Shown: positions 7,223 through 21,451 of the stretch, piece by piece
Layout of the letters: every line of letters begins with the position of its first letter
How positions within the stretch are numbered: position 1 is the first letter of the stretch
NCBI GenBank assembly: GCA_041611735.1
Contig: JBFIML010000049.1
Location: 1 to 28,033 of the forward strand
Direction: 5' to 3'
Length of the DNA: 28,033 nucleotides
Origin: Myxococcota bacterium
GTDB lineage: Bacteria; Myxococcota_A; UBA9160; PR03
Notes under the pieces: model-generated
Seen by the model: only the letters and a program-made list of their open reading frames with translations
Told to the model about the DNA's origin: nothing
Databases searched by the model: none
Translations under genes and position numbers: made by a program

Positions 7223-8731
7223 TCAGATGGCACGGTCGCGGCCCGCCCAGTAGCGGTCGCGCAGCAGGCGCACGCGCAGCTTGCCGGTCGGGTGGCGCGG
7301 CAGCTTCTCCTCGAAGTCGACGGAGCGCGGCACCTTGTAGGCGGCCAGGTGCTGCCGGGCGAAGTCCAGGATGTCGGCCTCCAGCGCCGGCCCGGGCTCG
7401 AAACCCGGCCGCAGCTCCACGGCCGCCTTCACCGTCTCGCCCCACTCGTCGTCGGGGATGCCGAAGACGCCCACATCGGAGACGGCCGGGTGCTCGTGCA
7501 GCACCTGCTCCACCTCGGCCGGGTAGACGTTCACGCCACCGGTGATGATCATGTTGGACTTGCGATCGCACAGATGGACCCAGCCCTCGGCGTCCACCCA
7601 GCCCACGTCGCCGATGGTGAAGGTGGCCGGCCCGAGGTGCGCCCGCGCCGTCTTCTCCACGTCCCGGTGGTATTCGAAGACGTCCGGCAGCTTCTTGTGG
7701 CGACAGAAGAGCGTCCCGACCTGGCCGGGCGGCAGCGGCTGGCCGAGCTCGTCGGCAGCGAACACCTCGTAGGCCGGGACCGCGCGGCCCACGGTGCCCG
7801 GGTGGGCGAGCCAATCCTCGGAGCCCACCAGCGTGCAGACCCCGCTCTCGGTGGCGCCCCAGTACTCCACCAGCACGGCCCCCCACCACTCGATCATGCG
7901 GCGTTTCACGGCGCTGGAGATCGGCGCGGCGCCGTGCAGCACCAGGGAGAGATCGGGCGCGCGGAAGGCCGCACGCACGTCGGCCGGGAGGCGCAGCAGG
8001 CGCACGAACATGGTGGGGACCAGGTGCGTGTGGCGGATGACGCGCTCCTGGAGGGCGTCGAGCACCGCGCGCTCGTCGAAGCGCGGCAGGATCACGACGG
8101 ACGCCCCGTTCTGCTGGTCGTAGACCGCGAAGAGCAGCGGCGCCGCGTGGTAGAGCGGGCCCGTCACCAGGTGCGGGCCGCTCCCGTCCAGACCCAGGGC
8201 GGCGCCGGCCGTGCGCTGGTAGTCGAGGGCGGCGTCGAGCGTGGGTGGGCGCGTGCGCTTGACGCCCTTGGGTCGTCCGCTCGTCCCGCTGGTGTAGATC
8301 ATGGTGCCGCCGGGCGGGCCATCGCCGGGCATCGGCGCGTCGGAGACGCCGGCCAGGGCGCGGTCCAGCTCCTCGCCCACCCGGATCCGCTGCGGCGCGC
8401 CGGCGGCGCGGGCCGCCGCCTCGCGGGGCTCGTCGCAGAAGACCACGCGGCTGCCCGAGTCCTGGATCACGTGGGCGATCTCCTCGGGCGTCAGGTGGCG
8501 GTTGATGGGCGTCAGCCAGATGCCCGCGTGCAGGGCGCCCAGCACCAGCTCCACGCACTCCAACCGGTTGCCCAGCAGGAAGGCCGCGTGGTCGTCGGGG
8601 CCCAGCCCGAGCTCGTCGCGCAGCAGGTGGGCGATGCGGGCGGTGCGGTCGCGGAGCTCCGCCCGGCTGCGCTGCCGCACCCCGTCGTCGAGAGCGGGAG
8701 GACGTTGTTGACTGATTGGCTTCTCCCTCAC
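7223..8731 (-). CDS. Acyl-CoA synthetase (AMP-binding, bile-acid-CoA-ligase-like group)
   Basis: YTSGTSGRPKG, GPLYHAAP, EYWGATE, IGDVG, DRKSNMIITGGVNVYPAEVE, PTGKL. The start is uncertain because the N-terminus is encoded by a repeat arm. Confidence 0.88.
   Translation of the reverse strand: MREKPISQQRPPALDDGVRQRSRAELRDRTARIAHLLRDELGLGPDDHAAFLLGNRLECVELVLGALHAGIWLTPINRHLTPEEIAHVIQDSGSRVVFCDEPREAAARAAGAPQRIRVGEELDRALAGVSDAPMPGDGPPGGTMIYTSGTSGRPKGVKRTRPPTLDAALDYQRTAGAALGLDGSGPHLVTGPLYHAAPLLFAVYDQQNGASVVILPRFDERAVLDALQERVIRHTHLVPTMFVRLLRLPADVRAAFRAPDLSLVLHGAAPISSAVKRRMIEWWGAVLVEYWGATESGVCTLVGSEDWLAHPGTVGRAVPAYEVFAADELGQPLPPGQVGTLFCRHKKLPDVFEYHRDVEKTARAHLGPATFTIGDVGWVDAEGWVHLCDRKSNMIITGGVNVYPAEVEQVLHEHPAVSDVGVFGIPDDEWGETVKAAVELRPGFEPGPALEADILDFARQHLAAYKVPRSVDFEEKLPRHPTGKLRVRLLRDRYWAGRDRAI
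8698..8727 (+). repeat. Solo arm of the 30-bp repeat family (GAGGACGTTGTTGACTGATTGGCTTCTCCC)
   Basis: Direct match to the arms at 8732, 13450 and 21330; starts 34 bp before the next arm. Confidence 0.85.
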
Positions 8732-8820
8732 GGGGACGTCGTTGCCTGATCGACTTTTCGGCGGTGCAGAGGGAGCGGCAGCCGTTCAAACCGAAACGTC
8801 ATTCAGCCAACAACGTCCCC
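8732..8820. repeat. Inverted-repeat element copy A (89 bp; MITE/REPIN-like)
   Basis: Arms 8732-8761 GGGGACGTCGTTGCCTGATCGACTTTTCGG and reverse complement of 8791-8820 GGGGACGTTGTTGGCTGAATGACGTTTCGG; 25/30 identical; 29-bp spacer. Confidence 0.88.
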
Positions 8821-9860
8821 AGCAGCCGCGTCACGATGTTGTTGGTCTCCAAGTCCGACTGCGGTGGAATCAGGCCCGCCGCCACCAGCTGCTGGGCGAC
8901 GCGGATCATGATGACCGCGAAGCGGAAGGCGGCGAAGACCTCGTAGTAGTGGAGATGGCGGACGTGGTGGCCGGTGGCCTTCTCGTAGCGCGCCACGGTC
9001 TCCGCCCGGCTCGGGAAGCCGCGCAGGCGGTCCCGGCCCACTCCCTCGCTGTGGTGGCGATCCAGGAAGAGCCACCAGGCGAGATCCGCCTCGGGGCTGC
9101 GCAGGTCCGCCATCTCCCAGTCGAGGACGGCTACGCAGCGGCCGTCGCGGAAGATCATGTTGCCCGGGCGCGCGTCGCCCCAGGAGAAGACGACGGGCTC
9201 GGGCTCGTCGGGGGCGTTCTCCCGGAGCCAGGCGACGCCCGCCTCGGCGATGGGCTGCGGCTTGCCGCGCGCTGCCCAGGCAAGGAAGCGCTCGTAGGCG
9301 GCGAGCTCGTGCGCGAGCGGCGTCTCGCCGCGCTTCGGCGTCTCGAACAGATCGAGCCCGCGCCAGTCCAGGCGATGGATATGCGTCAACACCTCGAGCC
9401 CGCTCCACCAAAGCGCCTCGCGCTCGGCGGGCTCGATCTCCGTCACCCAGCCGCCCATGTGGTAGGGCGGATTGTCGGTGGGGATCCGGCCCTCCACGCG
9501 TTGCATCACGTAGAAGGGGGCGCCCAGCACCGCGGCGTCCGGCTCGAAGCCGAAGACCTGCGGCACGGGGACCTCGGTCGCGGCCAGCTTCTCGAGGATG
9601 CGCGCCTGGAGGCCCAGATCGTAGCTCGGGAAGACCGTGACCCCGCGCGGCTCGAGCCGCACGACGCGGCCCTGGCGGGCGACGACGCCGCTCTCCCGCC
9701 AGGCGAGCTCGAACAGCAGCGTGTCGTTCGAGTAACCGGTAGCCCCGGGGCGTTCCAGGCCGGAGACGCGCACATCGCGGGCCTCGGGCATGCGCAGCGC
9801 CAGCCACTCCTCCAGGCGCGTGCGAAGCATCTCCAGATCCGGGGGCGCGGCTGCCGGCAT
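8799..9860 (-). CDS. APH-like phosphotransferase family protein (Rv3168 / ACAD10-11 kinase-like)
   Basis: GYSNDT, VPVPQV, LGAPFYVMQRVEG, WGDARPGN catalytic loop, VLDWEMA, DLAWW. Confidence 0.88.
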   Translation of the reverse strand: MPAAAPPDLEMLRTRLEEWLALRMPEARDVRVSGLERPGATGYSNDTLLFELAWRESGVVARQGRVVRLEPRGVTVFPSYDLGLQARILEKLAATEVPVPQVFGFEPDAAVLGAPFYVMQRVEGRIPTDNPPYHMGGWVTEIEPAEREALWWSGLEVLTHIHRLDWRGLDLFETPKRGETPLAHELAAYERFLAWAARGKPQPIAEAGVAWLRENAPDEPEPVVFSWGDARPGNMIFRDGRCVAVLDWEMADLRSPEADLAWWLFLDRHHSEGVGRDRLRGFPSRAETVARYEKATGHHVRHLHYYEVFAAFRFAVIMIRVAQQLVAAGLIPPQSDLETNNIVTRLLGTLLAE

Positions 9861-9906
9861 GGCGAGGCCGCATCCTACCGCATCGCCCCGCGCCTACGGC
9901 GGGCTG

Positions 9907-9915
9907 TGGTATAAG
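9907..9915 (+). promoter_or_regulatory. Putative extended -10 promoter (TG-G-TATAAG) for the hydrolase gene
   Basis: tgTGgTATAAg in the divergent 78-bp intergenic region, followed by GGAGGT RBS at 9929-9934. A TAGGAT -10-like hexamer faces the other way at 9872-9877. Confidence 0.5.
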
Positions 9916-9938
9916 GGAAGGTTCCGACGGAGGTTTCC

Positions 9939-11072
9939 ATGTCGCTTCGCTCCCGCCTCGCCCTCGCCCTCTTCCTACCCGTCACGGCGCTCCTCGTCGC
10001 TCCGGCGCCCGCGCACGCCGACTCCAGAGGCCCGATCGCAGCGCCCGACGGCCCGGGACCCTATGCGGTCGGGCGCACGACCTTCGTGGCCCGGGACGCC
10101 GCCCGCGGCCGGAGCCTCACCGTGGACGCCTGGTACCCGGTGGACCCGGCGGATGCCGCTGGCCCCTCCGCGATCTACGACCTGATCTTCACCGGGATCG
10201 TGTCCTCGCGGGCCCGCACCGACGCCCCGCCCTCGGCAGACGGCCCCTTCCCGCTCGTGGTCTTCTCTCACGGCAACGGCGGCATCCGCTTCCAGTCCTA
10301 CTTCCTGACCGAGATCCTGGCGAGCCACGGCTTCGTGGTCGTCTCGCCGGACCACGCGGGCAACACCGCCCTCGACTTCCTGTTCGGTACCAACGTGCCC
10401 TTCCTCCAGGCTGCGCTCGATCGGCCCCAGGACGTCTCCTTCCTGATCGACGTCCTGCTGGCCCGCAGCGCGAACCCCGACGACCCCTTCGCCGGGCGCA
10501 TCGATCCGCGGCGCATCGGCGTGAGCGGCCACTCCTTCGGCGGCTACACGTCCCTGGCGGTGACGTCGGGGATCCCGGGCGTCCCTGCGGACCCGCGCGT
10601 GCGCGCCATCGCCCCGCTCGCCCCGGCCTCCAGCAGCCTCACCGACGCGCAGCTGGCCGGGATCCGGGTGCCGACCCTGATCGTGGGCGGGACGCTGGAC
10701 ACGACGACCCCCATCGACCCCCAGAGCACGCGGCCCTTCGAGCGGGTCACGGCGCGTCCGCGCTACCGGGTCGATGTGGTGGACGCGGGCCACGCCTCCT
10801 TCACCAACACCTGCGCCATCGCGGAAGCGCTGGGCTCCATTGGCCTTCCCCAGTCCTTTCTCGATGCCGTCCTGCGCGGTCTGATCGAGGAGGGGTGCGC
10901 ACCGGAACTGATCCCGATCCAGGACGCGCAGCAGGTCACGAATCGCTACGTGGTGGCCTTCTTCCAGCGCCATCTGGCCCTCGACCCGCGCTACAAGCGC
11001 TACCTGACGCCGGGCCACGCCCGCAACGATCCCGACGTGATCTACTTCCAGGTGGCTGGCGGCGGGCCCTAG
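9939..11072 (+). CDS. Secreted alpha/beta hydrolase (predicted dienelactone hydrolase/PAF-AH-like lipase-esterase)
   Basis: Signal peptide ending AHA|D; PGPYAVG, FPLVVFSHG, LASHGFVVVSPDH, DRPQDVSF, nucleophile GHSFGG, Asp in GTLD, His in AGHASF. Confidence 0.87.
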   Translation: MSLRSRLALALFLPVTALLVAPAPAHADSRGPIAAPDGPGPYAVGRTTFVARDAARGRSLTVDAWYPVDPADAAGPSAIYDLIFTGIVSSRARTDAPPSADGPFPLVVFSHGNGGIRFQSYFLTEILASHGFVVVSPDHAGNTALDFLFGTNVPFLQAALDRPQDVSFLIDVLLARSANPDDPFAGRIDPRRIGVSGHSFGGYTSLAVTSGIPGVPADPRVRAIAPLAPASSSLTDAQLAGIRVPTLIVGGTLDTTTPIDPQSTRPFERVTARPRYRVDVVDAGHASFTNTCAIAEALGSIGLPQSFLDAVLRGLIEEGCAPELIPIQDAQQVTNRYVVAFFQRHLALDPRYKRYLTPGHARNDPDVIYFQVAGGGP

Positions 11073-11084
11073 CAGGCGGATCGC

Positions 11085-12548
11085 TCAGTCGGTCCGCCGA
11101 CCCGGCAGGCGCGCCTCGCGCAAGGCCGAGCGGCGCAGCTTGCCCGCGTCGTCGCGCAGGGGCGCGTCCACGAACTCGAAGCTGCGCGGGATCTTGGTGC
11201 GCACCAGGTGGCGCGCCAGGTGCTCGCGCAGCTCCGCCTCGGAGACTGGTGTCGGCGCGTCCACGATGGCATGCACGCGCTGGCCGAGGTCTTCGTCGGG
11301 CAGCCCGATCACGGCGCTGGAGCGGACTGCCGGGTGCGCATCGAGGGCTGCCTCGACCTCGGCGGGATACACGTTCGCGCCGCCGGTCAGGATCATGTCG
11401 GTCTTGCGCTCCACCAGGTAGAGGTAGCCGTCCTCGTCCAGATAGCCGAGGTCGCCGAGGGATTCCCAGCCGTTCGCGGTGGCTACGGCCTCCGTACCCA
11501 CGTAGCGGTAGGTGGAGCCGCGCCCCCCGGGCGGCATCAAGAAGACCTCGCCCACCTCACGGGGCGCGCACTCGCTGCCATCCCGGCGCAGGATCCGGAT
11601 CCTGCGTCCGCCCCCGGGCTTCCCCACGGAGCCCGGGTGCGCGAGCCACTCGCTGCCCGAGATCAGCGTGCCGGCGATGCGCTCGGTGCCGCCGTAGGCC
11701 TCCCAGATGCGCTCCGGACCCAGCCACTCGATCCAGGCGCGCTTCAGCCAGACGGGGCTCGGCGCGCCGGTGCACATCACCCGCCGCAGGGACGAGAGAT
11801 CGAAGCGCCGCCGCTCCGGCTCCGGGAGGCGCCAGATGCGCTGCATCATGGTCGGGACGAAGAGCACCCACTCGACCCGGTGCCGCTCGATCAGTGCGAG
11901 AGCCTGGGCGGCGTCGAAGCGCGTCATCACCACCACGCGCCCGCCGCACAGGAGCTGCTGCCAGGCGGTGATGAAGGGGCCAGCGTGGTAGAGGGGGCCG
12001 GGAACCAGGGTGACGCCCCCCGGCCGCATGCCGTTCTCCGCCAGCTCCGGGTCGCACTCGGCGGGGGTCAGGTCCACGATGAGCTTGGGACGCCCGGTGC
12101 TCCCGCCCGAGGCCATGGCACGCACGTGCCTTGGCACCACGTCCGCAAGCGGGGTCTCGGCGAGGCCCCGGTCCGGCTCGAAACCCGAGGCCAGGGTCGG
12201 GCGCCCGCCGGCTTCGGCTTCGGGCGCGCCCACCACCAGGGCCGGGGCGGCGAGATCCACGATGGCGCGTCGCTCGCGTTCCGGGAGCTTCGCCGAGACC
12301 GGCTGGGGCGTGGCGCCGAGCTTCCACACCGCGAGGGTGGCCTCGAAGAACTCGATGCCGTTCGGGAGGGCCAGGGTCACGAGATCGCCCTCTCCTACCC
12401 CGAGCTTGCGGTAGGCGCGTCCCAGTCGGTTCGTGCGGCGTTCGAGCTCGTCGCGAGTGCGGGTGGCCTCCTCGTGCACGACCGCGACCGCGCCGGGATC
12501 GCGCTCGGCGTGCCAGCGCATGGCGCGCGCATGGGACATGCGGGGCAT
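11085..12548 (-). CDS. Acyl-CoA synthetase (AMP-binding, bile-acid-CoA-ligase-like group)
   Basis: SGGSTGRPK, GPLYHAGP, EAYGGTE, LGDLG, GGANVYPAEVE, DAGKL. Start ATG 12548 (GGAG RBS) or 12539. Confidence 0.88.
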   Translation of the reverse strand: MPRMSHARAMRWHAERDPGAVAVVHEEATRTRDELERRTNRLGRAYRKLGVGEGDLVTLALPNGIEFFEATLAVWKLGATPQPVSAKLPERERRAIVDLAAPALVVGAPEAEAGGRPTLASGFEPDRGLAETPLADVVPRHVRAMASGGSTGRPKLIVDLTPAECDPELAENGMRPGGVTLVPGPLYHAGPFITAWQQLLCGGRVVVMTRFDAAQALALIERHRVEWVLFVPTMMQRIWRLPEPERRRFDLSSLRRVMCTGAPSPVWLKRAWIEWLGPERIWEAYGGTERIAGTLISGSEWLAHPGSVGKPGGGRRIRILRRDGSECAPREVGEVFLMPPGGRGSTYRYVGTEAVATANGWESLGDLGYLDEDGYLYLVERKTDMILTGGANVYPAEVEAALDAHPAVRSSAVIGLPDEDLGQRVHAIVDAPTPVSEAELREHLARHLVRTKIPRSFEFVDAPLRDDAGKLRRSALREARLPGRRTD

Positions 12549-12687
12549 GGGGGCTCCCTGCCAAGGCCGTCCGCGGTGGGGCATCCGGCGATGCACGACG
12601 CTCCCGGGTGCGGCGCAGCGACGTCGGGCAACGTATGGTAGGCGCCCGGGGCCCGACAAGGGGCCGGCGAAGCGCGCGGGAGGAGAC

Positions 12688-13449
12688 GTGGACGGGCTCG
12701 TGGCGGGGAAGGTGGCGCTCGTCACCGGGGCGGGCTCGGGGATCGGGCGGGCCGCGGCGCGAGCCCTGGCGCGCGAGGGAGCCCGGGTGGCGGTGGCAGA
12801 CGTGGACCGGGCCGGCGGCGAGGAGACCCTTGCCGCGATCCGAAGTGCAGGCGGCCAGGCCGAGCTCGTGGCCTGCGACGTGTCCCGCGACGCGGAGGTG
12901 GCGGCGGCGGTACGGAGCGTCGTCGAGCGCTGGGGCCGGCTCGACTGCGCCGTCAACAATGCGGGGGTGGCCACGGAGGGGGGGCTCTTGCACCAGCTCA
13001 CCCTCGAGGAGTGGGAGCGCACACTGGCCGTGAACCTCTCGGGCGTCTTCTACTGCATGCGCCACGAGATTCCGGTGATGATCGGCCAGGGAGGCGGCGC
13101 CATCGTGAACACCTCCTCCGGAGCGGGGGTGGTGGCGGCGCCGCTGCTGGCCCACTACTGCGCCACCAAGCACGGCGTGCTCGGCCTCACTAAGACCGCC
13201 GCCCAGGAGAACGCACGCACCGGCGTGCGCGTGAACGCCATTCTCCCGGGCGTCGTGGACACGCCCATGCTGCAGCGGCACATGGCCAAGGGGCCGCTCA
13301 TCGAGCAGGGCATCCGGGCCGCGGCGCTGCGCGGCAGCCTGGGTCGACCCGAGGAGGTGGCCGAGGCGGCGGTGTGGCTGTGCTCGGATCGCGCCTCCCT
13401 GGTGAGCGGCGTCTCCCTCGTCCTCGACGGCGGCGCCCTGGGCAGGTAG
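12688..13449 (+). CDS. Short-chain dehydrogenase/reductase (NAD-type)
   Basis: GTG after AGGAG; TGAGSGIG, acidic VADVD, NNAG, YCATK, RVNAILPG, DGG. Confidence 0.88.
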   Translation: MDGLVAGKVALVTGAGSGIGRAAARALAREGARVAVADVDRAGGEETLAAIRSAGGQAELVACDVSRDAEVAAAVRSVVERWGRLDCAVNNAGVATEGGLLHQLTLEEWERTLAVNLSGVFYCMRHEIPVMIGQGGGAIVNTSSGAGVVAAPLLAHYCATKHGVLGLTKTAAQENARTGVRVNAILPGVVDTPMLQRHMAKGPLIEQGIRAAALRGSLGRPEEVAEAAVWLCSDRASLVSGVSLVLDGGALGR

Positions 13450-13537
13450 GGGGACGTTCTCGACTGATTGACTTCTCCTGCCGCCGACCGCCGCGGCTCT
13501 CGAAACCGGAAGAGGTCGATTAGTCGAGAACATCCCC
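13450..13537. repeat. Inverted-repeat element copy B (88 bp)
   Basis: Arms 13450-13479 GGGGACGTTCTCGACTGATTGACTTCTCCT and reverse complement of 13508-13537 GGGGATGTTCTCGACTAATCGACCTCTTCC; 24/30 identical; 28-bp spacer; begins at the base after the SDR stop. Confidence 0.9.
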
Positions 13538-13544
13538 CTTCCGA

Positions 13545-13550
13545 TACCCT
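13545..13550 (+). promoter_or_regulatory. Putative -10 hexamer TACCCT 7 nt upstream of the ipdA GTG (leaderless-type)
   Basis: cgaTACCCTggggggcGTG. Confidence 0.35.
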
Positions 13551-13557
13551 GGGGGGC

Positions 13558-14418
13558 GTGGAGAAGCGAGTCACCGCGGAGGAGGTCGTCGCCGAGCTGC
13601 GCGATGGGATGACCATCGGGATCGGCGGCTGGGGCGCGCGCCGCAAGCCCATGGCCCTGGTCCGCGCCCTGCTGCGCTCGCCGCTGCGCGACCTGACGCT
13701 CGTCAGCTACGGCGGGCCCGACGTGGGCCTGTTGTGCGCGGCCGGCAAGCTGCGCAAGGTGGTCTACGGCTTCGTCTCCCTGGACTCGATCCCGCTGGAG
13801 CCCCATTTCCGGGCGGCCCGGGAGAGCGGCCGCGTGGAGGCCCACGAGCTCGACGAGGGCATGCTGCAATGGGGCCTCTACGCGGCGGCCTGCCGCCTCC
13901 CCTTCCTGCCCACCCGCGCCGGTCTGGGCTCCGATGTGACGAAGACCTTCCCGAACCTCCGCATGGTGCGCTCCCCCTACGACGACGCCGAGGAGCTCGT
14001 CGCCATGCCGGCCCTCGAGCTCGACGCGGCCCTCGTGCACATGAACCGCGCCGACGCGGCCGGGAACGCCCAGTTCCTGGGGCCGGACCCCTACTTCGAC
14101 GACCTCTTCCTCGGCGCCGCGAAGCGCCGCTTTCTCTCCTGCGAGCGCATCGTGCCGACCGAGGACCTGCTCAAGGCGGGCGCCGTCCACACCTTGTGCA
14201 TCCCCCGCATGCTGGTGGACGGCGTCGTGGAGGCGCCCGGCGGCGCCCACCCGACCGAGTGCCCGCCCGACTACCCGCGCGACGAGGCCTTCCAGCGCGA
14301 GTACGCGGCCGCCGCCCGAGATCCCCAGGCCTGGTCCGCCTTCCGCGCCCGCTACCTGGACGTCCCGAGCGAGACGGCCTATCAGGAGGCCGTGCGCGCT
14401 CGGGGAGGGCCGCAGTGA
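13558..14418 (+). CDS. ipdA: IpdA, CoA-transferase-like ring-opening hydrolase alpha subunit (steroid C/D ring degradation)
   Basis: LRDGMTIGIGGWGARRKPMALVRALLRS, YGFVSLDSIPLEPHF, ELDEGM, LPFLPTRAGLGSD, GPDPYFDDLF match Rv3551-type IpdA as I recall it. Start placed at GTG 13558. Confidence 0.88.
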   Translation: MEKRVTAEEVVAELRDGMTIGIGGWGARRKPMALVRALLRSPLRDLTLVSYGGPDVGLLCAAGKLRKVVYGFVSLDSIPLEPHFRAARESGRVEAHELDEGMLQWGLYAAACRLPFLPTRAGLGSDVTKTFPNLRMVRSPYDDAEELVAMPALELDAALVHMNRADAAGNAQFLGPDPYFDDLFLGAAKRRFLSCERIVPTEDLLKAGAVHTLCIPRMLVDGVVEAPGGAHPTECPPDYPRDEAFQREYAAAARDPQAWSAFRARYLDVPSETAYQEAVRARGGPQ

Positions 14419-15182: not shown

Positions 15183-15199
15183 GCGAGGAGAGCCGCCCC

Positions 15200-16255
15200 A
15201 TGCATCCCGTCCTCCACACGCGCCTGTGCGAGCTGCTCGGGTGCCGGGTCCCGATCATCCAGACCGGCATGGGCTGGGTCGCGACGCCCGAGCTGGTGGC
15301 AGCCGCCTGCAACGCGGGCGCCTTCGGCTTCCTGGCCGCCGCCACGATCCGGCCCGAGGAGATCGACACCGAGATCGAGAAGGTGAAGCGCGCCACCGGG
15401 CGGCCCTTCGGCGTGAACTTCCTGATGGACGCGCCGGGCGCCGAGCGCATCGCCGACGCCGCGGTACGCCACGGGGTGCGCGCCGCCGGCTACCATCGGG
15501 CACCGAATCCAACCTTGATCAAGCGCTTCAAGGACGCCGGCGTGCTCTGCATCCCCACCTGCGGGGCGGTGCGCCACGCCCAGAAGGCGGAGAAGCTCGG
15601 CGCCGACGTGATCATCGTGCAGGGGGGCGAGGGGGGCGGCCACACGGGGACGGTCCCCACCTCGCTGCTGGTCTCCCAGGTGGCGGACGCTGTGGACGTG
15701 CCCGTGGTGGCGGCGGGGGGCTTCCGCGACGGACGCGGCCTGGTGGCGGCGCTGGCCTTCGGCGCCGCGGGGGTCGCCATGGGGACGCGCTTCCTGCTGA
15801 CCCGCGAGAGCCCCGTCCCGCACGTCACCACCGACCGCTACCTGCGCGCCGGCGTGGACGACGTGCGGGTGACGCGCGAGGTGGACGGCCTCCCGCAGCG
15901 CGTGCTCCGCAACGAGCTGGTGGACGAGCTCGAAGAGAGCGGCCCCGTGCGCCGCTTCGTGCGCGCGCTCCGCAGCGGCCTGGCCTTCCGCCGCGTGAGC
16001 GGCGCCTCGATCCCTCAGCTGCTGCGCGCCGGCTTCGCCATGCGCCGCCACGAGAAGCTGACTCGCACCCAGATGCTGATGGCCGCCAACGCCCCGATCC
16101 TGGCCCGCAGGGCCATGGTGGAGGGCGACCCGGTGCACGGCTACCTCCCGAGCGGGACGGTGGCCGGCGTGATCGAGGATCGGCCGAGCTGCGCCGAGCT
16201 GATCGACCGCATCGTGGCCGAGGCAGAGCGCACGCTGAAGGCGCTCGGCGCCTGA
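15200..16255 (+). CDS. ipdC: IpdC-like flavin enoyl-CoA oxidoreductase (nitronate monooxygenase family)
   Basis: PIIQTGMGWVA, QGGEGGGHTG, AAGGFRDGRGLVAALAFGA, MGTRFLLT; adjacent to ipdAB. ATG 15200 after GAGGAG. Confidence 0.83.
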   Translation: MHPVLHTRLCELLGCRVPIIQTGMGWVATPELVAAACNAGAFGFLAAATIRPEEIDTEIEKVKRATGRPFGVNFLMDAPGAERIADAAVRHGVRAAGYHRAPNPTLIKRFKDAGVLCIPTCGAVRHAQKAEKLGADVIIVQGGEGGGHTGTVPTSLLVSQVADAVDVPVVAAGGFRDGRGLVAALAFGAAGVAMGTRFLLTRESPVPHVTTDRYLRAGVDDVRVTREVDGLPQRVLRNELVDELEESGPVRRFVRALRSGLAFRRVSGASIPQLLRAGFAMRRHEKLTRTQMLMAANAPILARRAMVEGDPVHGYLPSGTVAGVIEDRPSCAELIDRIVAEAERTLKALGA

Positions 16256-16265
16256 GGAGTCCGCC

Positions 16266-17030
16266 ATGTACACGCAGGTTCGTGTGGAGAAGGGGATCGC
16301 CCAGGTGGTGCTCGACCACCCGCCCGTGAACGCCTTCGATAGCCGGGGCTGGGCGCACCTGGCCGAGCTCTTCACCTCGCTCGGCAAGGACCCGGCGGTG
16401 CGCGTGGTGGTGGTGGCCGCCGACGGGCGCGGCTTCTGCGCCGGGGTGGACATCAAGGAGCTGGCCGCCGACGCGAGCCGCATCACCCAGGTGAACCGCG
16501 GCTGCTACGACACCTTCGCTGCCATCCACGACTGCCCGGTCCCCGTGATCGCGGCGGTCCATGGCTTCTGCCTGGGTGGTGGCGTGGGCATCGCCGGCTC
16601 CTGCGACGTGATCTACGCCGCCGAGGACGCGAGCTTCGGCCTGCCCGAGATCGACCGCGGCGCGCTCGGCGCCGCGAGCCACCTGTTGCGCATGTTCCCG
16701 ATCCAGAAGGTGCGCCGCATGCTCTACACGGGGGAGAGCATCCTGGCCAAGGAGGCCTACCGCCTCGGCGCCCTGGAGGAGGTGGTGACCCTCGACGAGC
16801 TGCGGCCCGCCGCCCGCGCCCTTGCCGAGAAGATCGCCGGCAAGAGCCCCCAGGCCATGCGCCTGGCCAAGGAGTCGTTGAACGGGATCGAGCTCCTGGA
16901 CGTGAAGCGGAGCTACCGCTTCGAGCAGGGCTTCACCCTGGAGCTCTACACGTCGCCCGACTCCCAGGAGGCCCGCGACGCCTTCGTGCAGAAGCGCCAG
17001 GCGCGCTTCGGCGACGACGAGAAGAGCTGA
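16266..17030 (+). CDS. echA20: Enoyl-CoA hydratase, EchA20-like
   Basis: PPVNA, FCAGVDIKE, GFCLGGG, FGLPEIDRGALGAASHL, SYRFEQGFTLEL. Confidence 0.83.
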   Translation: MYTQVRVEKGIAQVVLDHPPVNAFDSRGWAHLAELFTSLGKDPAVRVVVVAADGRGFCAGVDIKELAADASRITQVNRGCYDTFAAIHDCPVPVIAAVHGFCLGGGVGIAGSCDVIYAAEDASFGLPEIDRGALGAASHLLRMFPIQKVRRMLYTGESILAKEAYRLGALEEVVTLDELRPAARALAEKIAGKSPQAMRLAKESLNGIELLDVKRSYRFEQGFTLELYTSPDSQEARDAFVQKRQARFGDDEKS

Positions 17031-17036
17031 GGCGCC

Positions 17037-18200
17037 GTGGACCTCCGCTACGACGCCGAGGAGCAGGCCTTCCGCGCCGAAGCCCGTGCGTGGCTCGAGG
17101 CCCACGTGCCCGGCGCGCCCCTACCCTCCTTCGACACCCGGGAGGGCTTCGAGGCGCACCGGGCCTGGGAGCAGCAGCTCCACGCCGGCGGCTGGGCCAC
17201 GGTCAACTGGCCGGTCGAGTACGGCGGGCGCGGCGCGAACCTGCTCGAGTGGCTGATTTTCGAGGAGGAGTACTACCGGGCCGGCGCCCCGAAGCGGGTC
17301 AACCAGAACGGGATCTTCCTGCTCGGCCCGACCCTCATGGAGTACGGGAGCGAGGCCCAGAAGCGGCGCTTCCTGCCGAAGATGGCCGCCAGCGAGGAAG
17401 TCTGGGCCCAGGGCTGGTCCGAGCCCAACGCCGGGAGCGACATGGCCGCCATCCAGGCCACGGCCCGGCGCGAGGGCGGCGAGTACGTGCTGAACGGCCA
17501 GAAGACCTGGGCGTCGCGTGGCGCCTTTGCCGAGTGGCTCTTCGGTCTGTTCCGCACGGACCCGGACTCGGAGCGCCACCGGGGCCTCTCCTTCCTGCTG
17601 GTCCCCTTGGACGCCCCGGGCGTGACCGTGCGCCCCATCGCCCAGCTCGACGGGGAGACCGGCTTCGCGGAGGTCTTCCTGGACGACGCGCGCATTCCGC
17701 TGGAGAACCGGCTCGGCGAGGAGAACCAGGGCTGGCGGGTGGCCATGTCCACCGCGGGCTTCGAACGCGGACTCATGCTGCGCAGCCCGGCCCGCTTCCA
17801 GGCCACGGCGCAGCGGCTGGTGGCCCTGCACCGGGAGCACGCGGAGCCCGTCGAGCCGTCCCTGCGCGAGGCCGTGGTGGGTTGCTGGCTCGACGCCGAG
17901 GCCTACACCCTCGAGACCTATCGCACCGTCTCGCGCCTGTTGGCCGGCGGGACGATCGGCTTCGAGGCGAGCCTCAACAAGATCTTCTGGTCGGAGCTCG
18001 ACCTCCGCATGCACGAGACGGCGCTGCGCATCCTGGGGCCCCTCGGCGAGCTGCGGCCCGAGGCGCCGGCGGCCCAGGGCGTCGCCGAATGGCTGGACGG
18101 CTTTCTCTTCGCCCTGGCCGGACCCATCTACGCGGGCACCAACGAGATCCAGCGCAACGTGATCGCCGAGCGCATCCTCGGCCTCCCGAAGGGTTCCTGA
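17037..18200 (+). CDS. fadE31: Acyl-CoA dehydrogenase, FadE31-like subunit
   Basis: FEEEYYRAGAP, WAQGWSEPNAGSD, GVTVRPIAQLDGETGFAEVF, ERGLMLRSPARF, GPIYAGTNEIQRNVIAERILGLP. Confidence 0.8.
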   Translation: MDLRYDAEEQAFRAEARAWLEAHVPGAPLPSFDTREGFEAHRAWEQQLHAGGWATVNWPVEYGGRGANLLEWLIFEEEYYRAGAPKRVNQNGIFLLGPTLMEYGSEAQKRRFLPKMAASEEVWAQGWSEPNAGSDMAAIQATARREGGEYVLNGQKTWASRGAFAEWLFGLFRTDPDSERHRGLSFLLVPLDAPGVTVRPIAQLDGETGFAEVFLDDARIPLENRLGEENQGWRVAMSTAGFERGLMLRSPARFQATAQRLVALHREHAEPVEPSLREAVVGCWLDAEAYTLETYRTVSRLLAGGTIGFEASLNKIFWSELDLRMHETALRILGPLGELRPEAPAAQGVAEWLDGFLFALAGPIYAGTNEIQRNVIAERILGLPKGS

Positions 18201-19261
18201 TGCGCTTCGGCTTCGACGAGGATGTGCTGCTCCTCCAGCAGACGGTGCGCGACTTCCTGGTGAAGGAGTGCCCGCCGACGCGGGTTCGCGCGCTCTGGGA
18301 GACCGCGACCGGGCGCGACCGAAAGCTGTGGCGGCAGCTGGCCGAGCTGGGCGTGACCGGGCTGTGCGTCGCGGAAGCGCACGGGGGCCTCGGCCTCGAC
18401 GAGATCGCCGGCGTGCTGGTGCTCGAGGAGGCGGGCCGGGCGGCGCTGGCCGAGCCGTTGGGGGACTGCGCGGCGGTGGCGGCGCCGCTCCTGGCCGAGC
18501 TGGGCGACGCCGGGCGCTGGGCGCCCTGGCTCCAGCGCATCGCGGCGGGCGAGGCGGTGGTGGTCGTCGGTCACCCGGTCGACGCCTTCGTCGCCGACGC
18601 CCACGTGGCGGACCTGCTGCTGCTCCCGACCGGCGACGAGCTGCACGCCGTCCCGCGGCAGGAGGTGGAGCTGACCGCCCAGCCGGCCAACGACCCGGCG
18701 CGTCGGCTGTTCCGCGTGCGCTGGAACCCGGGCGGGGCCACCCGCGTGGCAGAGGGGCGCGAAGCCCGGGAGCTCCTGGCGGCGGCGGGCGACCGCGGCG
18801 CCCTGGCCTGTGCGGCCCAGCAGCTCGGCGTAACCGGGCACCTCCTCGACCTGGCCGTGACCCATGCCAGCCAGCGACGCCAGTTCGGGCGCCCGATCGG
18901 CTCATTCCAGGCGGTGGCCCACCGGCTGGCCGACGCGAAGGTACGGCTGGAGTACGCGCGGCCCGTGGTGCAACGATCGGCCCACTCGGTGGCGCGCGGC
19001 GCCCGCGGCCGGGCGCTGCACGTCTCCCACGCCAAGCTCGCCGCCGACGCCGCCGCCCTCTTCGCCGCCAAGGCCGCGCTTCAGGTGCACGGCGCGATCG
19101 GCTACACCTGGGAGCAGGATCTCCACGTCTGGATGCGACGGGCCTGGTCGCTGGCGAGGGCGTGGGGGGACGAGGCCTTCCACCGGGCACGCGTGGCGGA
19201 CTGGCTGCTCTCGGAGGACGCCCGGATCGGGCCGGGAACCAGCTTCGAAGGAGGTAGCTGA
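18200..19261 (+). CDS. fadE32: Acyl-CoA dehydrogenase, FadE32-like partner subunit
   Basis: MRFGFDE..., RQFGRPIGSFQAVAH, LQVHGAIGYTWEQDLH. TGATG coupling to the fadE31-like gene is typical of heteromeric steroid ACAD pairs. Confidence 0.72.
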   Translation: MRFGFDEDVLLLQQTVRDFLVKECPPTRVRALWETATGRDRKLWRQLAELGVTGLCVAEAHGGLGLDEIAGVLVLEEAGRAALAEPLGDCAAVAAPLLAELGDAGRWAPWLQRIAAGEAVVVVGHPVDAFVADAHVADLLLLPTGDELHAVPRQEVELTAQPANDPARRLFRVRWNPGGATRVAEGREARELLAAAGDRGALACAAQQLGVTGHLLDLAVTHASQRRQFGRPIGSFQAVAHRLADAKVRLEYARPVVQRSAHSVARGARGRALHVSHAKLAADAAALFAAKAALQVHGAIGYTWEQDLHVWMRRAWSLARAWGDEAFHRARVADWLLSEDARIGPGTSFEGGS

Positions 19262-19263
19262 AG

Positions 19264-20415
19264 ATGGGCGAGGCCTACATCGTGGACGCCGTGCGTACGC
19301 CGGTGGGAAGGCGCGGGGGCGGGCTCTCCCAGGCCCACCCGGCGGACCTCGGGGCGCACGTGATCCGAGCCCTGGTGGAGCGCACGGGGATCGACCCGGC
19401 CGCCGTGGAGGACGTGGTGTTCGGCTGCTGCGACACCCTCGGTCCCCAGGCGGGCGACGTGGCGCGCACCTGCTGGCTCGCGGCGGGGCTCCCGGAGCAC
19501 GTCCCGGGCGTCACCATCGACCGCCAGTGCGGCTCCTCCCAGCAGGCGGTGCACTTCGCTGCCCAGGGCGTCATGAGCGGGACCCAGGATCTCGTGGTGG
19601 CGGGCGGGGTCCAGAACATGAGCCAGATCCCGATCTCCTCCGCCATGACGCTGGCCGAGCCCCTGGGCTTCGCCGATCCCTTCTCGGGCTCCCGGGGCTG
19701 GGTGGCCCGCTACGGGACCCAGGAGGTGTCCCAATTCCGGGGCGCCGAGCTCATCGCCGAGAAGTGGAGCATCTCCCGGGAGGACATGGAGGTCTTCGCC
19801 CTGGAGAGCCACCGGCGCGCGATCCGGGCCATCGACGAGGGGCGCTTCGAGAACGAGATCGTGCCCTACGGCGACGTGAAGACGGACGAAGGACCGCGCC
19901 GCGACACGAGCCTCGAGAAGATGGCGAAGCTGAAGACCCTCACCGAGGGCGGGCGGCTCACGGCGGCGGTCTCGAGCCAGATCTCCGACGGGGCCACGGC
20001 GGTGCTGGTAGCGTCGGAGCTCGCGGTGAAGCAGCACGGGCTGCGGCCGCGGGCGCGCATCCACCACCTGAGCGTGCGGGCGGACGACCCGATCTTCATG
20101 CTGACGGCCCCGATCCCTGCCACCCAGTACGCGCTCCGGAAGGCCGGCATGAAGCTCCAGGACATCGATCTGGTGGAGATCAACGAGGCCTTCGCGCCGG
20201 TGGTGCTGGCCTGGCAGAAGGAGACCGGCGCGGATCTCGCGCGGGTGAACGTGAACGGCGGGGCCGTCGCCCTCGGGCACCCCATCGGCGCCACGGGGAC
20301 ACGCTTGATGGCGACGCTCCTGAACGAGCTCGAGCGCACCGGCGGCCGCTACGGCCTCCAGACCATGTGCGAAGGCGGCGGCCAGGCCAACGTCACCATC
20401 CTGGAGCGGGTGTAG
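19264..20415 (+). CDS. fadA6: Acetyl-CoA acyltransferase (thiolase) FadA6-like
   Basis: DRQCGSSQQA, VQNMSQIPISSAM, RYGTQEVSQFRGAELIAEKW, NEAF, GHPIGATG, TMCEGGGQAN. Confidence 0.85.
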   Translation: MGEAYIVDAVRTPVGRRGGGLSQAHPADLGAHVIRALVERTGIDPAAVEDVVFGCCDTLGPQAGDVARTCWLAAGLPEHVPGVTIDRQCGSSQQAVHFAAQGVMSGTQDLVVAGGVQNMSQIPISSAMTLAEPLGFADPFSGSRGWVARYGTQEVSQFRGAELIAEKWSISREDMEVFALESHRRAIRAIDEGRFENEIVPYGDVKTDEGPRRDTSLEKMAKLKTLTEGGRLTAAVSSQISDGATAVLVASELAVKQHGLRPRARIHHLSVRADDPIFMLTAPIPATQYALRKAGMKLQDIDLVEINEAFAPVVLAWQKETGADLARVNVNGGAVALGHPIGATGTRLMATLLNELERTGGRYGLQTMCEGGGQANVTILERV

Positions 20416-20432
20416 AGAGGCGGAGAGGCGAG

Positions 20433-21347
20433 ATGTCCAAACTCTGCGACGGTCGCGTGGTGATCGTGACCGGGGCCGGACGGGGCATTGGCCGCGCCCA
20501 CGCCCTGGCCTTCGCCCGCCAGGGCGCACGGGTGGTGGTCAACGATCTCGGCGCCAATGCCGACGGCAGCGGGCGCGCCGAAGGCCCGGCTCAGGACGTG
20601 GTGGACGCCATCCGGGCCGCCGGCGGCGAAGCCATCGCCGACGGGGCGGACGTCGCCGACTGGGAGCAGGCCGGCGCGCTGGTTCGGGCCGCCCTCGACG
20701 CCTTCGGCCGCCTCGACGTGGTGGTGAACAACGCCGGCTTCGTGCGCGACCGCATGTTCGTCAGCGCTGGCGAAGCGGAGTGGGACGCGGTGGTCCGCGT
20801 CCACCTGAAGGGCCACTTCTGCGTGGCGCGCCACGCGAGCGCCCACTGGCGCAACGAGGCCAAGGCGGGCCGCCCCGTGGACGCCCGCCTCGTCAACACC
20901 AGCTCGGGCGCCGGGCTCCAGGGGAGCGTCGGCCAGGGCGCCTACTCGGCCGCCAAGGCGGGGATCGCCGCGCTGACCCTCGTCCAGGCAGCGGAGCTGC
21001 GCCGCTACGGGATCACCGCCAACGCCATCGCCCCGGCCGCGCGGACACGCATGACCGAGACCGTCTTCGCGGACATGATGAAGAAGCCGGAGCGCGGCTT
21101 CGACGCCATGGCGCCGGAGAACGTCTCGCCGCTGGTGGTCTGGCTGGGGAGCGCCGAGTCGCGCGACGTCACGGGCCGCGTCTTCGAGGTGTCGGGCGGG
21201 AAGATCAGCCTGGCCGACGGCTGGCGCACGGGACCCGCGCTGGACAAGGGCGGGCGCTGGGAGCCCGACGAGGTGGGCGCCGCCGTTGTGGAGCTCCTCG
21301 CCAAGGCCACCCCACCGCAACGCGTCTACGGGGACGTTGTTGACTGA
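20433..21347 (+). CDS. Short-chain dehydrogenase/reductase, Rv3548c-like
   Basis: TGAGRGIGRAHALAFA, VVVNDLG, NNAGFVRDRMF, VHLKGHF, GSVGQGAYSAAK, ARTRMTE, FDAMAPENVSPLVVWLGS. The last residues GDVVD* are encoded by a repeat arm. Confidence 0.87.
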   Translation: MSKLCDGRVVIVTGAGRGIGRAHALAFARQGARVVVNDLGANADGSGRAEGPAQDVVDAIRAAGGEAIADGADVADWEQAGALVRAALDAFGRLDVVVNNAGFVRDRMFVSAGEAEWDAVVRVHLKGHFCVARHASAHWRNEAKAGRPVDARLVNTSSGAGLQGSVGQGAYSAAKAGIAALTLVQAAELRRYGITANAIAPAARTRMTETVFADMMKKPERGFDAMAPENVSPLVVWLGSAESRDVTGRVFEVSGGKISLADGWRTGPALDKGGRWEPDEVGAAVVELLAKATPPQRVYGDVVD

Positions 21348-21438
21348 TTGACTTGTTCGCGCCGCAAGCGCACCCGGCCGCCCAACCGACCGGCCCGGAG
21401 CACCCCCGGGAAGAAGTCAATTAGTCAAGAACGTCCCT
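21330..21438. repeat. Inverted-repeat element copy C (109 bp)
   Basis: Arms 21330-21359 GGGGACGTTGTTGACTGATTGACTTGTTCG and reverse complement of 21409-21438 AGGGACGTTCTTGACTAATTGACTTCTTCC; 25/30 identical; 49-bp spacer. Confidence 0.9.
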
Positions 21439-21451
21439 GGCGAGGAGCCCC

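Follow-up and report, generated by a model that had tools for sequence, protein, structure and literature searches.

Inverted-repeat arms in a 28-kb window as probable ends of TIRtron derivatives left behind by their transposase

The stretch of DNA analyzed here (the window, 28,033 nt) carries seven copies of a repeat arm of ~30 nt. In the reading that we favor, with a probability of roughly 0.8, these arms are the terminal inverted repeats of gene-less miniature derivatives of a TIRtron, whose transposase has apparently been lost from the window's genome (G000) and whose copies are decaying there. The class is already known under the names TIRtron and TIRYT (Di Nocera, De Gregorio and Rocco, 2013, BMC Genomics 14:522, PMC3733652), and this arm family is a further member of it. 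A preliminary description of the DNA had not recognized the arms as a described family. This holds for the arm sequence, which a literature search limited to the word TIRYT did not find, but not for the kind of element, which is set out in the TIRtron sections of that paper.

Results

All seven arms were recovered at the positions first reported, as were the element lengths of 89, 88 and 109 bp (Table 1). The 21-nt core GACGTTSTYGACTRATTGACT matches with 0-3 mismatches at 8701, 8735, 8797-8817(-), 13453, 13514-13534(-), 21333 and 21415-21435(-), whereas 100 shuffles gave no match and none is expected by chance. A full 29-nt pattern recovers only five of the seven arms at ≤3 mismatches, because those at 8732 and 8791 are more degenerate. 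The arm at 8698 turns element 1 into a '++-' composite of 123 bp, an order that would fit two elements, one nested in the other or one partly deleted; the closest relative, G003, has a nested '++--' counterpart of this layout.

In each arm, two direct hexamer repeats come after a conserved outer box, (C)GGGGACGTT. The hexamer in G000 is TTGACT with an 8-nt period, and it differs between lineages. Conservation within the arm is position-specific, with GAC, AT and GAC kept and other positions free. As had been noted from the sequence, the arms are not self-palindromic: a single arm has neither self-complementarity nor a GTAG tag. The window contains no transposase gene, again as first described, and the suggested Rfam check returned no covariance-model match at E ≤ 1 over its whole length.

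Table 1. Coordinates of arms, elements and adjoining genes in the window, and of elements shared with G003
Feature	Position	Strand	Remarks
Outer left arm, composite element 1	8698..8727	+	GAGGACGTTGTTGACTGATTGGCTTCTCCC
Inner left arm, element 1	8732..8761	+	degenerate, TTGCCT/TCGACT variant
Right arm, element 1	8791..8820	-	holds stop codon of APH-like gene
Phosphotransferase (APH-family) gene	8799-9860	-	arm gives C-terminal tail ...LGTLLAE and stop (8799-8801)
SDR gene	12688-13449		TAG (13447-13449) immediately before element 2
Element 2	13450..13537	.	arm 13450-13479, 28-nt spacer, arm 13508-13537
ipdA-like CoA-transferase gene	13558-14418		begins 20 nt past element 2
SDR gene	20433-21347	+	last five codons and TGA stop (21345-21347) from element 3 arm; tail ...YGDVVD
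Element 3	21330..21438	.	arm 21330-21359, 49-nt spacer, arm 21409-21438
Acyl-CoA dehydrogenase (ACAD) gene	begins 21452		after element 3
Same-site elements, G000/G003	SDR/ipdA junction, C8:52458, C47:21088, C47:23967, C7:35148		

The three window elements all sit between co-oriented genes, at or inside the upstream stop codon, in agreement with the preliminary description; the stop lies within the arm at elements 1 and 3 and adjoins it at element 2. The arm motif TGAcTGAtTGA provides a stop in all three frames, and genes hit at their 3' end therefore terminate 3-7 codons into the arm. Throughout G000, 34 of 42 arm-abutting genes end at a TGA within the arm. For annotation, this means at least 34 G000 genes with repeat-supplied C-terminal tails (GRS, GDV(L/V)D or GTFLTD, each followed by the stop) and stop codons. 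Several tightly coupled catabolic junctions have been widened by ~100 nt through a strong hairpin, including two in the window's steroid ring-degradation-like cluster.

The family extends across G000 (assembly 95% complete, 118 contigs), where 73 arms were found at ≤3 mismatches versus none for a reversed control. A genome-wide scan of the kind first proposed, made with nhmmer, gave 99 arm hits in 56 places, of which 39 are '+-' pairs, 15 consist of one arm and 2 of three, with spacers of 13-63 nt between arms. Most copies lie at gene 3' ends, and 17 of 47 occupy convergent junctions versus 14.8% expected. This distribution removes the idea that the arms are special to the lipid/steroid cluster, but the association with lipid genes is statistically real: lipid-catabolic genes, defined as the acyl-CoA dehydrogenase, enoyl-CoA hydratase, thiolase, acyl-CoA ligase and SDR families, make up 24 of 90 flanks compared to 142 of 3377 genes (4.2%; odds ratio 9.8, p = 6e-14). 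The copies are also spatially clustered, and the enrichment may reflect clustering around a transposase locus that once lay inside the steroid cluster. Many neighbors are housekeeping genes (TrpA, CoaE, Tmk, SecE, Der, LexA, citrate synthase). The corresponding count in G003, 4 of 23 assessable flanks, of which two belong to the transposase locus, is too small to judge. Random transposition does not predict an enrichment of ~10-fold.

The spacers, described earlier as unrelated, proved to be so among 40 elements of G000 (mean local score 6.4 versus 6.5 for shuffles), and the only spacer-related copies are the neighboring pairs C3:142648/143082 and C11:35617/38168. The absence of a target-site duplication was also borne out, since the flanks of the 40 elements are no more alike than chance predicts (k = 2-8). 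Random arm pairs differ at 6.2 of 26 positions. Unrelated spacers are not predicted by a simple copy-from-a-master model and need great age or turnover.

The arms are tied to a transposase in other genomes. At locus L018, arms at 808-833 and 1847-1873 enclose a 330-aa ORF (861-1853), whose product, P0001, matches Pfam Y1_Tnp above the cut-off (E = 1.6e-11, 44.9 bits). P0001 has a C-terminal Bac_DnaA_C-like region that scores below cut-off, and against NCBIfam NF047646 (REP_Tyr_transpos) it reaches 63 bits where the cut-off is 80. Y1_Tnp is also above cut-off in the G003 protein (41.1 bits), L074 (29.8) and L075 (44.1), and the motifs HFH/HVH and RY(I/V)H(L/R)NP are legible in the transposase sequences, in keeping with the HUH motif and catalytic tyrosine that characterize Y1 enzymes of the IS200/IS605 type. 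A role for the DnaA_C-like helix-turn-helix in reading the direct repeats was considered; it is weakened by the G003 enzyme (219 aa), which is without that part, so the role is not general.

Homologues of P0001 occur in six of seven genomes of the same family. The gene is multi-copy in five MAGs (G041-G045), in which 14 of 24 arms lie next to a homologue. Among 12 sampled loci of the window's phylum, the homologue is flanked by GGGGAC-box arms with a direct repeat at seven, and flanking arms are absent at five. The check for arms flanking a transposase, which had been suggested at the outset, thus came out positive for inverted arms in L018, in G041-G045, in G003 and at the seven phylum loci, but not inside G000. 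There, PF01797 (Y1 transposase) has no match, P0001 as query finds nothing at E ≤ 10, and the best local tblastn E values are 0.17 for P0001 and 0.11 for the G003 protein. The gene might sit in an assembly gap. Beyond G000, the motif was found in none of 40 relatives at ≤2 mismatches; a strict exact-pattern scan of species-representative genomes gave no match, and a looser pattern gave 12 loci there, all outside the window's lineage.

Comparison of orthologous sites shows both occupied and empty states. The SDR/ipdA junction of G003, which corresponds to the site of element 2, holds an arm, a Y1_Tnp gene and an arm, the arms being variants of those in the window. Empty orthologous sites, for which a search had been recommended, were found in more distant relatives, at the SDR/ACAD junction of element 3, which measures at most ~20 nt in 9/9 relatives' loci (-1 to +7 nt in the five resolved to the nucleotide) versus 104 nt in G000, and at the TrpA 3' end, where 14/14 other family members have no arm. 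Because the SDR/ACAD gap is so short in the relatives, the 49-nt spacer arrived with element 3. The idea that two arms inserted separately on either side of a native terminator, which then became the spacer, is therefore rejected at this site.

The two genomes also differ in how uniform their arms are. Dispersed arms of the G003 variant number 23 in that genome, and their mismatches to its own 25-nt consensus are 0 in 6 arms, 1 in 13, 2 in 3 and 3 in 1, under a ceiling of 3 mismatches. The spectrum in G000 is broad, with a mode of 4-5 of 25 (0 mismatches in 1 arm, 1 in 6, 2 in 12, 3 in 15, 4 in 18, 5 in 21 and 6 in 11). The arm population is thus diffuse in G000, without a transposase, and tight in G003, with one. 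This contrast matches the pattern of RAYT loss followed by REPIN decay, as presented in the relevant part of a preprint (bioRxiv 10.1101/2021.07.10.451892).

Discussion

Our favored model starts from an autonomous TIRtron, in which a RAYT-like 'TIRYT' Y1 (HUH) tyrosine transposase lies between the same two arms. This enzyme would act in trans on the gene-less elements, copying them by 'peel and paste' of a single strand, with the two arms paired as a stem. At the site of element 2, the transposase gene would have dropped out, leaving the arms and a 28-nt spacer, and the G000 population would now be an immobile, decaying relic. That the elements have moved at all is a reading of sequence comparisons: arms flanking Y1_Tnp genes elsewhere, empty orthologous sites and no target-site duplication. 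These observations support the preliminary proposal of a MITE/REPIN-like element that is non-autonomous and mobilized in trans, perhaps by an enzyme of the HUH/Y1 RAYT type.

The opposing proposal, a dedicated cis-regulatory structure for the cluster, is not supported, given the housekeeping neighbors and a position mostly at gene 3' ends. In its sharper form, with the arms as paired operators of a host regulator for a lipid/steroid catabolic regulon, we consider it very improbable. The enrichment of lipid-catabolic flanks and the position-specific conservation of the arms are what operators would show, but operators are hard to square with stop codons inside the arms, an excess at convergent junctions, a motif missing from all 40 relatives with orthologous junctions empty, and the same arms around transposase genes elsewhere; none of the three window elements contains a sigma-70-like promoter. 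A present role at the RNA level, with the elements kept as mRNA-stabilizing hairpins, processing sites or factor-independent terminators, is unlikely but deserves more weight. The predicted stems of the window elements are strong (-58 to -71 kcal/mol, with z-scores for elements 2 and 3 of -4.9 to -7.4 on both strands), the copies are biased to 3' ends and convergent junctions, and the two arms of one element have more non-consensus bases in common than expected (37 versus 23, p = 2e-4). Arm-to-arm transitions favor G.U over A.C on the sense strand (44 versus 30), although this bias is not significant (p = 0.13) and folding of the stems is about as good on one strand as on the other. Neither a T-tail nor a terminator-like consensus was found in the three window elements, which lie within operons, a setting that would make a terminator polar, and the arms give the impression of a decayed population, not a maintained one.

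A slightly longer shot is that the family is still active in G000, with its transposase gene in the 5% missing from the assembly or carried by an unbinned replicon. The assembly is incomplete, repeats do break assemblies (many G003 arms lie at contig ends), and one G000 arm equals the 25-nt consensus exactly while six are off by one base. However, the locus that carries the transposase in G003 is assembled in G000 and holds only arms and the 28-nt spacer, just 3 of the 56 places lie within 400 nt of a contig end, and the mismatch spectrum is broad. Decaying TIRtron derivatives remain our best explanation.

A further feature of the comparison with G003 is that elements recur at the same addresses. 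At five sites (Table 1), the G000 and G003 elements coincide to the nucleotide or to within about 10 nt, yet the arms are of the type proper to each genome, TTGACT at a period of 8 nt in G000 and TTGCCT at a period of 9 nt in G003. At the single site compared across the family, none of the 14 other members has an element, so the insertion there is ancestral to G000 and G003. Point mutation is insufficient to explain a parallel difference in arm type at many sites, given that G003 copies are 0-3 mismatches from one master. It is conceivable, though we would sooner bet against it, that elements stay at their genomic addresses and have their sequence replaced there, so that repeat and enzyme would co-evolve at fixed addresses. 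The transposase might cut resident copies at the GGGGACG box and paste the current master variant in place, or the master variant might be pasted into the loop of a resident copy (compare the nested '++--' layout in G003).

The closest described systems are TIRtrons, with whose families our arms were compared by description only, so that overlap with a listed one is possible (PMC3733652). As in the TIRtron sections of that paper, a RAYT-like Y1 gene is enclosed by long TIRs instead of REP hairpins, these repeats start with a G-rich box, and in some genomes they are moderately abundant as dispersed singles, dimers or clusters. The published box GGGGWSAS, stated there for some TIRs and not all, fits our box GGGGACGT at positions 1-6; positions 7-8 are GT instead of AS. 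The lineage-variable direct hexamer repeat does not figure in those sections, and G000 differs in having ~100 arms and no transposase gene. Subclass 2.1 of TnpA_REP proteins, equated with TIRYTs in the part of the work that treats it (Quentin, Siguier, Chandler and Fichant, 2018, BMC Genomics 19:475, PMC6006769), combines a Y1 HUH core with a C-terminal Bac_DnaA_C/HTH-like extension, as does P0001. In contrast, that part reports no REP-like sequences near subclass 2.1 genes, and such an extension is lacking in the protein that G003 has at the site of element 2.

Similarities to other repeats are partial. REPIN-RAYT systems are said to have been treated by Bertels and Rainey in 2011 (PMC3116915). 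The portions of the preprint cited above that cover them describe dispersed extragenic non-autonomous inverted doublets, a single-copy Y1 transposase flanked by repeats, as in G003, vertical inheritance with lineage-specific repeats, and decay of the repeats after transposase loss (bioRxiv 10.1101/2021.07.10.451892). Our arms differ in that they are not palindromic REPs and have no GTAG tag, their spacers are unrelated between copies, P0001 stays below the REP_Tyr_transpos cut-off, and the gene in the MAGs is multi-copy and insertion-sequence-like. Classical bacterial MITEs, for which the TIRtron paper names Correia/NEMIS, RUP and ERIC (PMC3733652), resemble the elements in size (~70-125 bp), in 30-nt terminal inverted repeats, in having no coding capacity, and in adjoining or overlapping gene ends with a strong hairpin once transcribed. 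Here, however, there is no target-site duplication and the enzyme is Y1 HUH, not DDE.

The little-studied TIRYT/TIRtron class thus gains an unannotated genome-wide repeat, and G000 and G003 form a natural pair for the life and death of such repeat populations. The combination of a conserved box with a lineage-variable direct repeat offers a testable hypothesis for end recognition by these enzymes.

Two other candidates were set aside. Integron attC sites have cores of the form RYYYAAC...GTTRRRY, opposite in orientation to the GTT...AAC of the arms. They had been considered for the gene-end position and variable center, but the flanks here are conserved operon genes. An actinobacterial origin, first suggested by the steroid genes and a G+C content of 72%, was rejected, as WhiB is absent and LpxC present. 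Occupied and empty states also face each other between L023 and G000: a gene at L023 ends ...RGDVVD and stops inside an element, and its G000 orthologue, without the element, has a tail 12 residues longer.

Probable orphaned elements of a known transposon type

The best explanation for the repeats of this genome (G000) is that they are miniature elements of the TIRYT type, orphaned and now decaying; elements of this kind are associated with RAYT-like Y1 (HUH) transposases flanked by terminal inverted repeats (TIRs). The repeat itself is real and genome-wide. A 21-nt core of the arm has seven matches in the window with 0-3 mismatches and none in 100 shuffles, at the places and on the strands that the preliminary description had reported, while the full 29-nt pattern retrieves five of the seven. 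The lengths of the three elements were also correctly described, and the additional arm at 8698 turns element 1 into a composite '++-' structure. Across G000 (4.09 Mb, 118 contigs, 95% complete), in which the window makes up the entire contig C49, 73 arms are found at up to 3 mismatches versus 0 for a reversed control. A profile made from those arms gives 99 arm matches at 56 places, of which 39 are '+-' pairs, 15 are single arms and 2 are triples. The host is a diderm and not an actinobacterium, since G000 encodes LpxC and no WhiB was found in it.

The arm consensus, (C)GGGGACGTTCTTGACTGATTGACTTYTYC, has a sharp outer edge, and the 21-nt cores of an element lie 25-75 nt apart. The spacers were said to be unrelated, and this holds for 40 elements (mean local score 6.4 versus 6.5 shuffled) except for two pairs of neighbours. 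No other pair has spacers as alike as those of two elements 435 bp apart, at C3:142648 and C3:143082; their spacers are nearly identical, which would fit a local duplication that took in the intervening small PNPOx-like gene. No target-site duplication was found at the elements, in agreement with the preliminary description.

Copies prefer gene 3' ends, with convergent junctions making up 17 of 47 copies versus 14.8% of all junctions (p 2e-4). Genes run into 42 of the 72 arms with E<1e-3, and for 34 of these genes the stop is one of the three TGAs in TGAcTGAtTGA, so that the arm supplies the protein tail GRS*, GDV(L/V)D* or GTFLTD*. All three window elements lie between co-oriented genes, as had been noted, with the upstream stop codon inside an arm in two cases (8799-8801 on the minus strand, and 21345-21347) and directly abutting the arm of element 2 in the third (13447-13449).

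Coordinates of the window elements, of a transposase locus in another record (L018) and of the G000 sites that coincide with repeat loci of the closest relative (G003)
Feature	Record	Position	Length	Structure
Element 1	window	8732-8820	89 bp	paired arms
Element 2	window	13450-13537	88 bp	paired arms
Element 3	window	21330-21438	109 bp	paired arms
L018 arm	L018	808-833
L018 ORF	L018	861-1853
L018 arm	L018	1847-1873
Coinciding site	G000	C8:52458
Coinciding site	G000	C47:21088
Coinciding site	G000	C47:23967
Coinciding site	G000	C7:35148

Arms flank Y1 transposase genes in other genomes

At up to 2 mismatches the arm motif is absent from all 40 relatives (16 of them from the same family), and the strict pattern has no match in a collection of species-representative genomes. 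A looser pattern matches metagenome contigs and MAGs labelled Deltaproteobacteria, Desulfobacteraceae or Thermodesulfobacteriota, in which an arm pair about 1.07 kb apart encloses a gene. The 330-aa product of this gene at L018, P0001, matches Pfam Y1_Tnp above the cut-off (E 1.6e-11), and its C-terminal region resembles Bac_DnaA_C below the cut-off (24.5 bits). In five MAGs, each with 1-27 matches to P0001 itself, 14 of 24 arms adjoin one of these homologues. Truncated gene remnants, and short derivatives made up of arm, spacer and arm, are present at two loci, L010 and L030. At L030, a metagenome contig whose positions 1-2760 form an RHS/YD-repeat locus, elements and a truncated transposase N-terminus separate the RHS core gene from the next RHS-type gene, and one element is inserted into the transposase remnant.

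Within the window's own phylum, transposase homologues occur in 117 of 401 sampled genomes, including 6 of 7 from the same family (1-2 matches each). Inverted arms flank the gene at 7 of 12 sampled phylum loci, and none were seen at the other 5. The arms at these seven have the same GGGGAC(G/A)(T/C)T box and, after it, a directly repeated hexamer that differs among them (GTTCAG, ACAACT, GTTGCG, TTTCAA, TTGCCT, TTGACT). At one locus (L079, genome G406) tandem arm arrays flank the homologue, two on one side and three on the other (1246-1345 and 2578-2730), with about 75-nt spacing and an ACAACT direct repeat.

The closest relative found carries a Y1 transposase gene

G003 is the closest relative found (its ipdA-like protein is 83% identical), and it carries a 219-aa Y1_Tnp gene (41.1 bits) exactly between the orthologues of the window SDR (12688-13449) and CoA-transferase (13558-14418). 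GGGGGACGTTCGTTGCCTTGGTTGCCT... and its inverted partner bound this gene, and the outer boundaries and flanks of the locus match window element 2. The G000 assembly has no Y1_Tnp gene, and neither P0001 nor the G003 protein has a homologue in it. Because G003 has the gene at this position and G000 lacks any Y1_Tnp, we read element 2 as the remnant of a transposase locus. The earlier guess of a Y1/RAYT-type enzyme is supported by the inverted arms around Y1_Tnp genes in L018, the MAGs and G003.

The 23 dispersed arms of G003 are of a TTGCCT type with a 9-nt period. This type is absent from G000, and the G000 type is absent from G003 at up to 2 mismatches. Against its own 25-nt consensus, the G003 set (searched to a ceiling of 3 mismatches) has 6, 13, 3 and 1 copies at 0, 1, 2 and 3 mismatches, whereas the G000 set has 1, 6, 12, 15, 18, 21 and 11 copies at 0-6. 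This contrast, in which the genome with the gene has the tight set and the genome lacking it the diffuse one, matches what has been described for REPINs after RAYT loss (bioRxiv 10.1101/2021.07.10.451892). G003 arms lie at the extreme ends of many contigs (C160, C178, C195, C199, C224, C289, C300, C8, C51), so the repeat breaks the assembly there and its copy number is underestimated.

Empty and shared insertion sites

Movement in trans had been proposed, and orthologous sites that are empty in relatives support it. Element 3 sits at an SDR/ACAD junction whose two genes are separated by no more than about 20 nt in all nine relatives' loci; in the five with stop and start resolved the interval is -1 to +7 nt, and the last SDR residues are ...QKVYGT*. 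The G000 SDR ends ...QRVYGDVVD* within the arm, 104 nt from the next gene. Conversely, L023, a metagenome contig about 75% identical to G000 genes at the nucleotide level, has a small gene that terminates within an element as ...RGDVVD*; the G000 orthologue is free of any element, and its tail is 12 residues longer. Downstream of TrpA, both G000 and G003 have elements that cut the protein at the same point (...ELK|TGTFSTH* and ...EL|RGRSLP*, respectively). None of the 14 other family members has an arm there, and 12 of them read through the insertion point as ...ALKAPLR or ...ALKAALR.

When 16 G003 arm loci were set against G000, 5 coincided with a G000 element, covering 4 G000 sites; 2 have a G000 arm nearby at a different point and 9 have none. 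Including the transposase site, the genomes share five addresses, where insertion points agree within 0-10 nt but each genome has its own arm type. Since the G003 copies differ so little from a single master, parallel point mutation cannot account for this. A nested '++--' double element occupies one G003 site. A speculative reading, less likely than not, is that resident copies were replaced by new copies or received their insertion.

Relation to known repeats and to host functions

TIRtrons and TIRYTs were defined as RAYT-like genes with long flanking TIRs, some of which have GGGGWSAS, and their dispersed TIR families are described as 'moderately abundant', occurring singly, in pairs (dimers) or in groups (Di Nocera et al. 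2013, PMC3733652). Most TIRYTs are placed in subclass 2.1, with Bac_DnaA_C/HTH C-terminal extensions (Quentin et al. 2018, PMC6006769). The present arms fit this kind, of which they would be an additional family. They differ from REPs and REPINs in that the arm unit is not palindromic and lacks GTAG, and in that P0001 scores 63 bits against NCBIfam REP_Tyr_transpos, under its cut-off of 80; the lack of target-site duplication separates them from DDE-type MITEs. The repeat had not been recognized as a described family, and an Rfam search of the entire window gave no family match.

A dedicated cis-regulatory structure for the window cluster had been offered as the alternative to a mobile element. 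Lipid-like genes, defined by phmmer searches that used the lipid-catabolic proteins of the window as queries, are indeed enriched beside the repeats. They make up 24 of the 90 genes flanking 48 element places, whereas the 3377 predicted genes include 142 of them (odds ratio 9.8, p 6e-14). By Pfam, the 84 flanking genes outside the window include many acyl-CoA dehydrogenases, hydratases, thiolases and ligases, but also TrpA, CoaE, Tmk, FtsJ, a MiaB-like enzyme, SecE, Der, LexA, citrate synthase, topoisomerase VI-A and MgtE. The family thus extends beyond lipid operons, and a structure dedicated to the window cluster is not supported. Element places are clustered (20 of 48 with a neighbour within 10 kb versus 8.7 expected, p about 0.0015), and we read the ancestral transposase locus as lying inside the steroid-type cluster. 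The likeliest cause of the lipid association would then be local spread together with the clustering of lipid genes.

Co-option of the elements for an RNA role is possible but unsupported. Long stems are predicted for the window elements as either RNA or DNA strand (-58 to -71 kcal/mol), with folding z-scores of -4.9 to -7.4 on both strands of elements 2 and 3. Among the 31 of 40 elements retained after an arm-quality filter, the two arms share more non-consensus bases than chance predicts (37 versus 23, p 2e-4), which fits either selection for pairing or a shared origin of both arms. However, the asymmetry of sense-strand G.U over A.C is 44 to 30 (p 0.13), and the window elements contain no promoter-like or terminator-like consensus.

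Gene context of the window elements

By a GC3-based gene call and Pfam, the window contains acyl-CoA ligases, an SCP-type thiolase and an APH-like kinase, as well as an SDR. A run resembling steroid ring C/D degradation consists of two CoA-transferase subunits, an NMO-family oxidoreductase, an enoyl-CoA hydratase, two acyl-CoA dehydrogenases, a thiolase, an SDR and another dehydrogenase; pentose-phosphate genes are also present. The names ipdAB, echA20 and fadA6 are applied to some of these genes by analogy.

In seven relatives (L056-L062), a motif …GATACGTCTCG… (or the reverse complement …CGAGACGG(G/C)(C/T)CGTATCG…) is kept about 20-50 nt 5' of the ipdA-like gene, the counterpart of that at window 13558, and looks like a candidate regulator operator. 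It is absent from the corresponding G000 site, and no TetR-family gene lies within the window. The called start of the acyl-CoA ligase at 7223-8731 (minus strand) is a GTG inside an element, which would make its first residues arm-encoded; the real start probably lies downstream of this GTG. Between element 3 and the next ATG, the 13 nt at 21439-21451 (GGCGAGGAGCCCC) hold a Shine-Dalgarno-like GAGGAG that has no equivalent in relatives, where the two genes are overlapping or almost contiguous. Adjoining the lipid-catabolic genes, 1598-4801 (minus strand) encodes a protein of 1067 aa in which an adenylate/guanylate cyclase domain precedes an AAA_16 ATPase domain.
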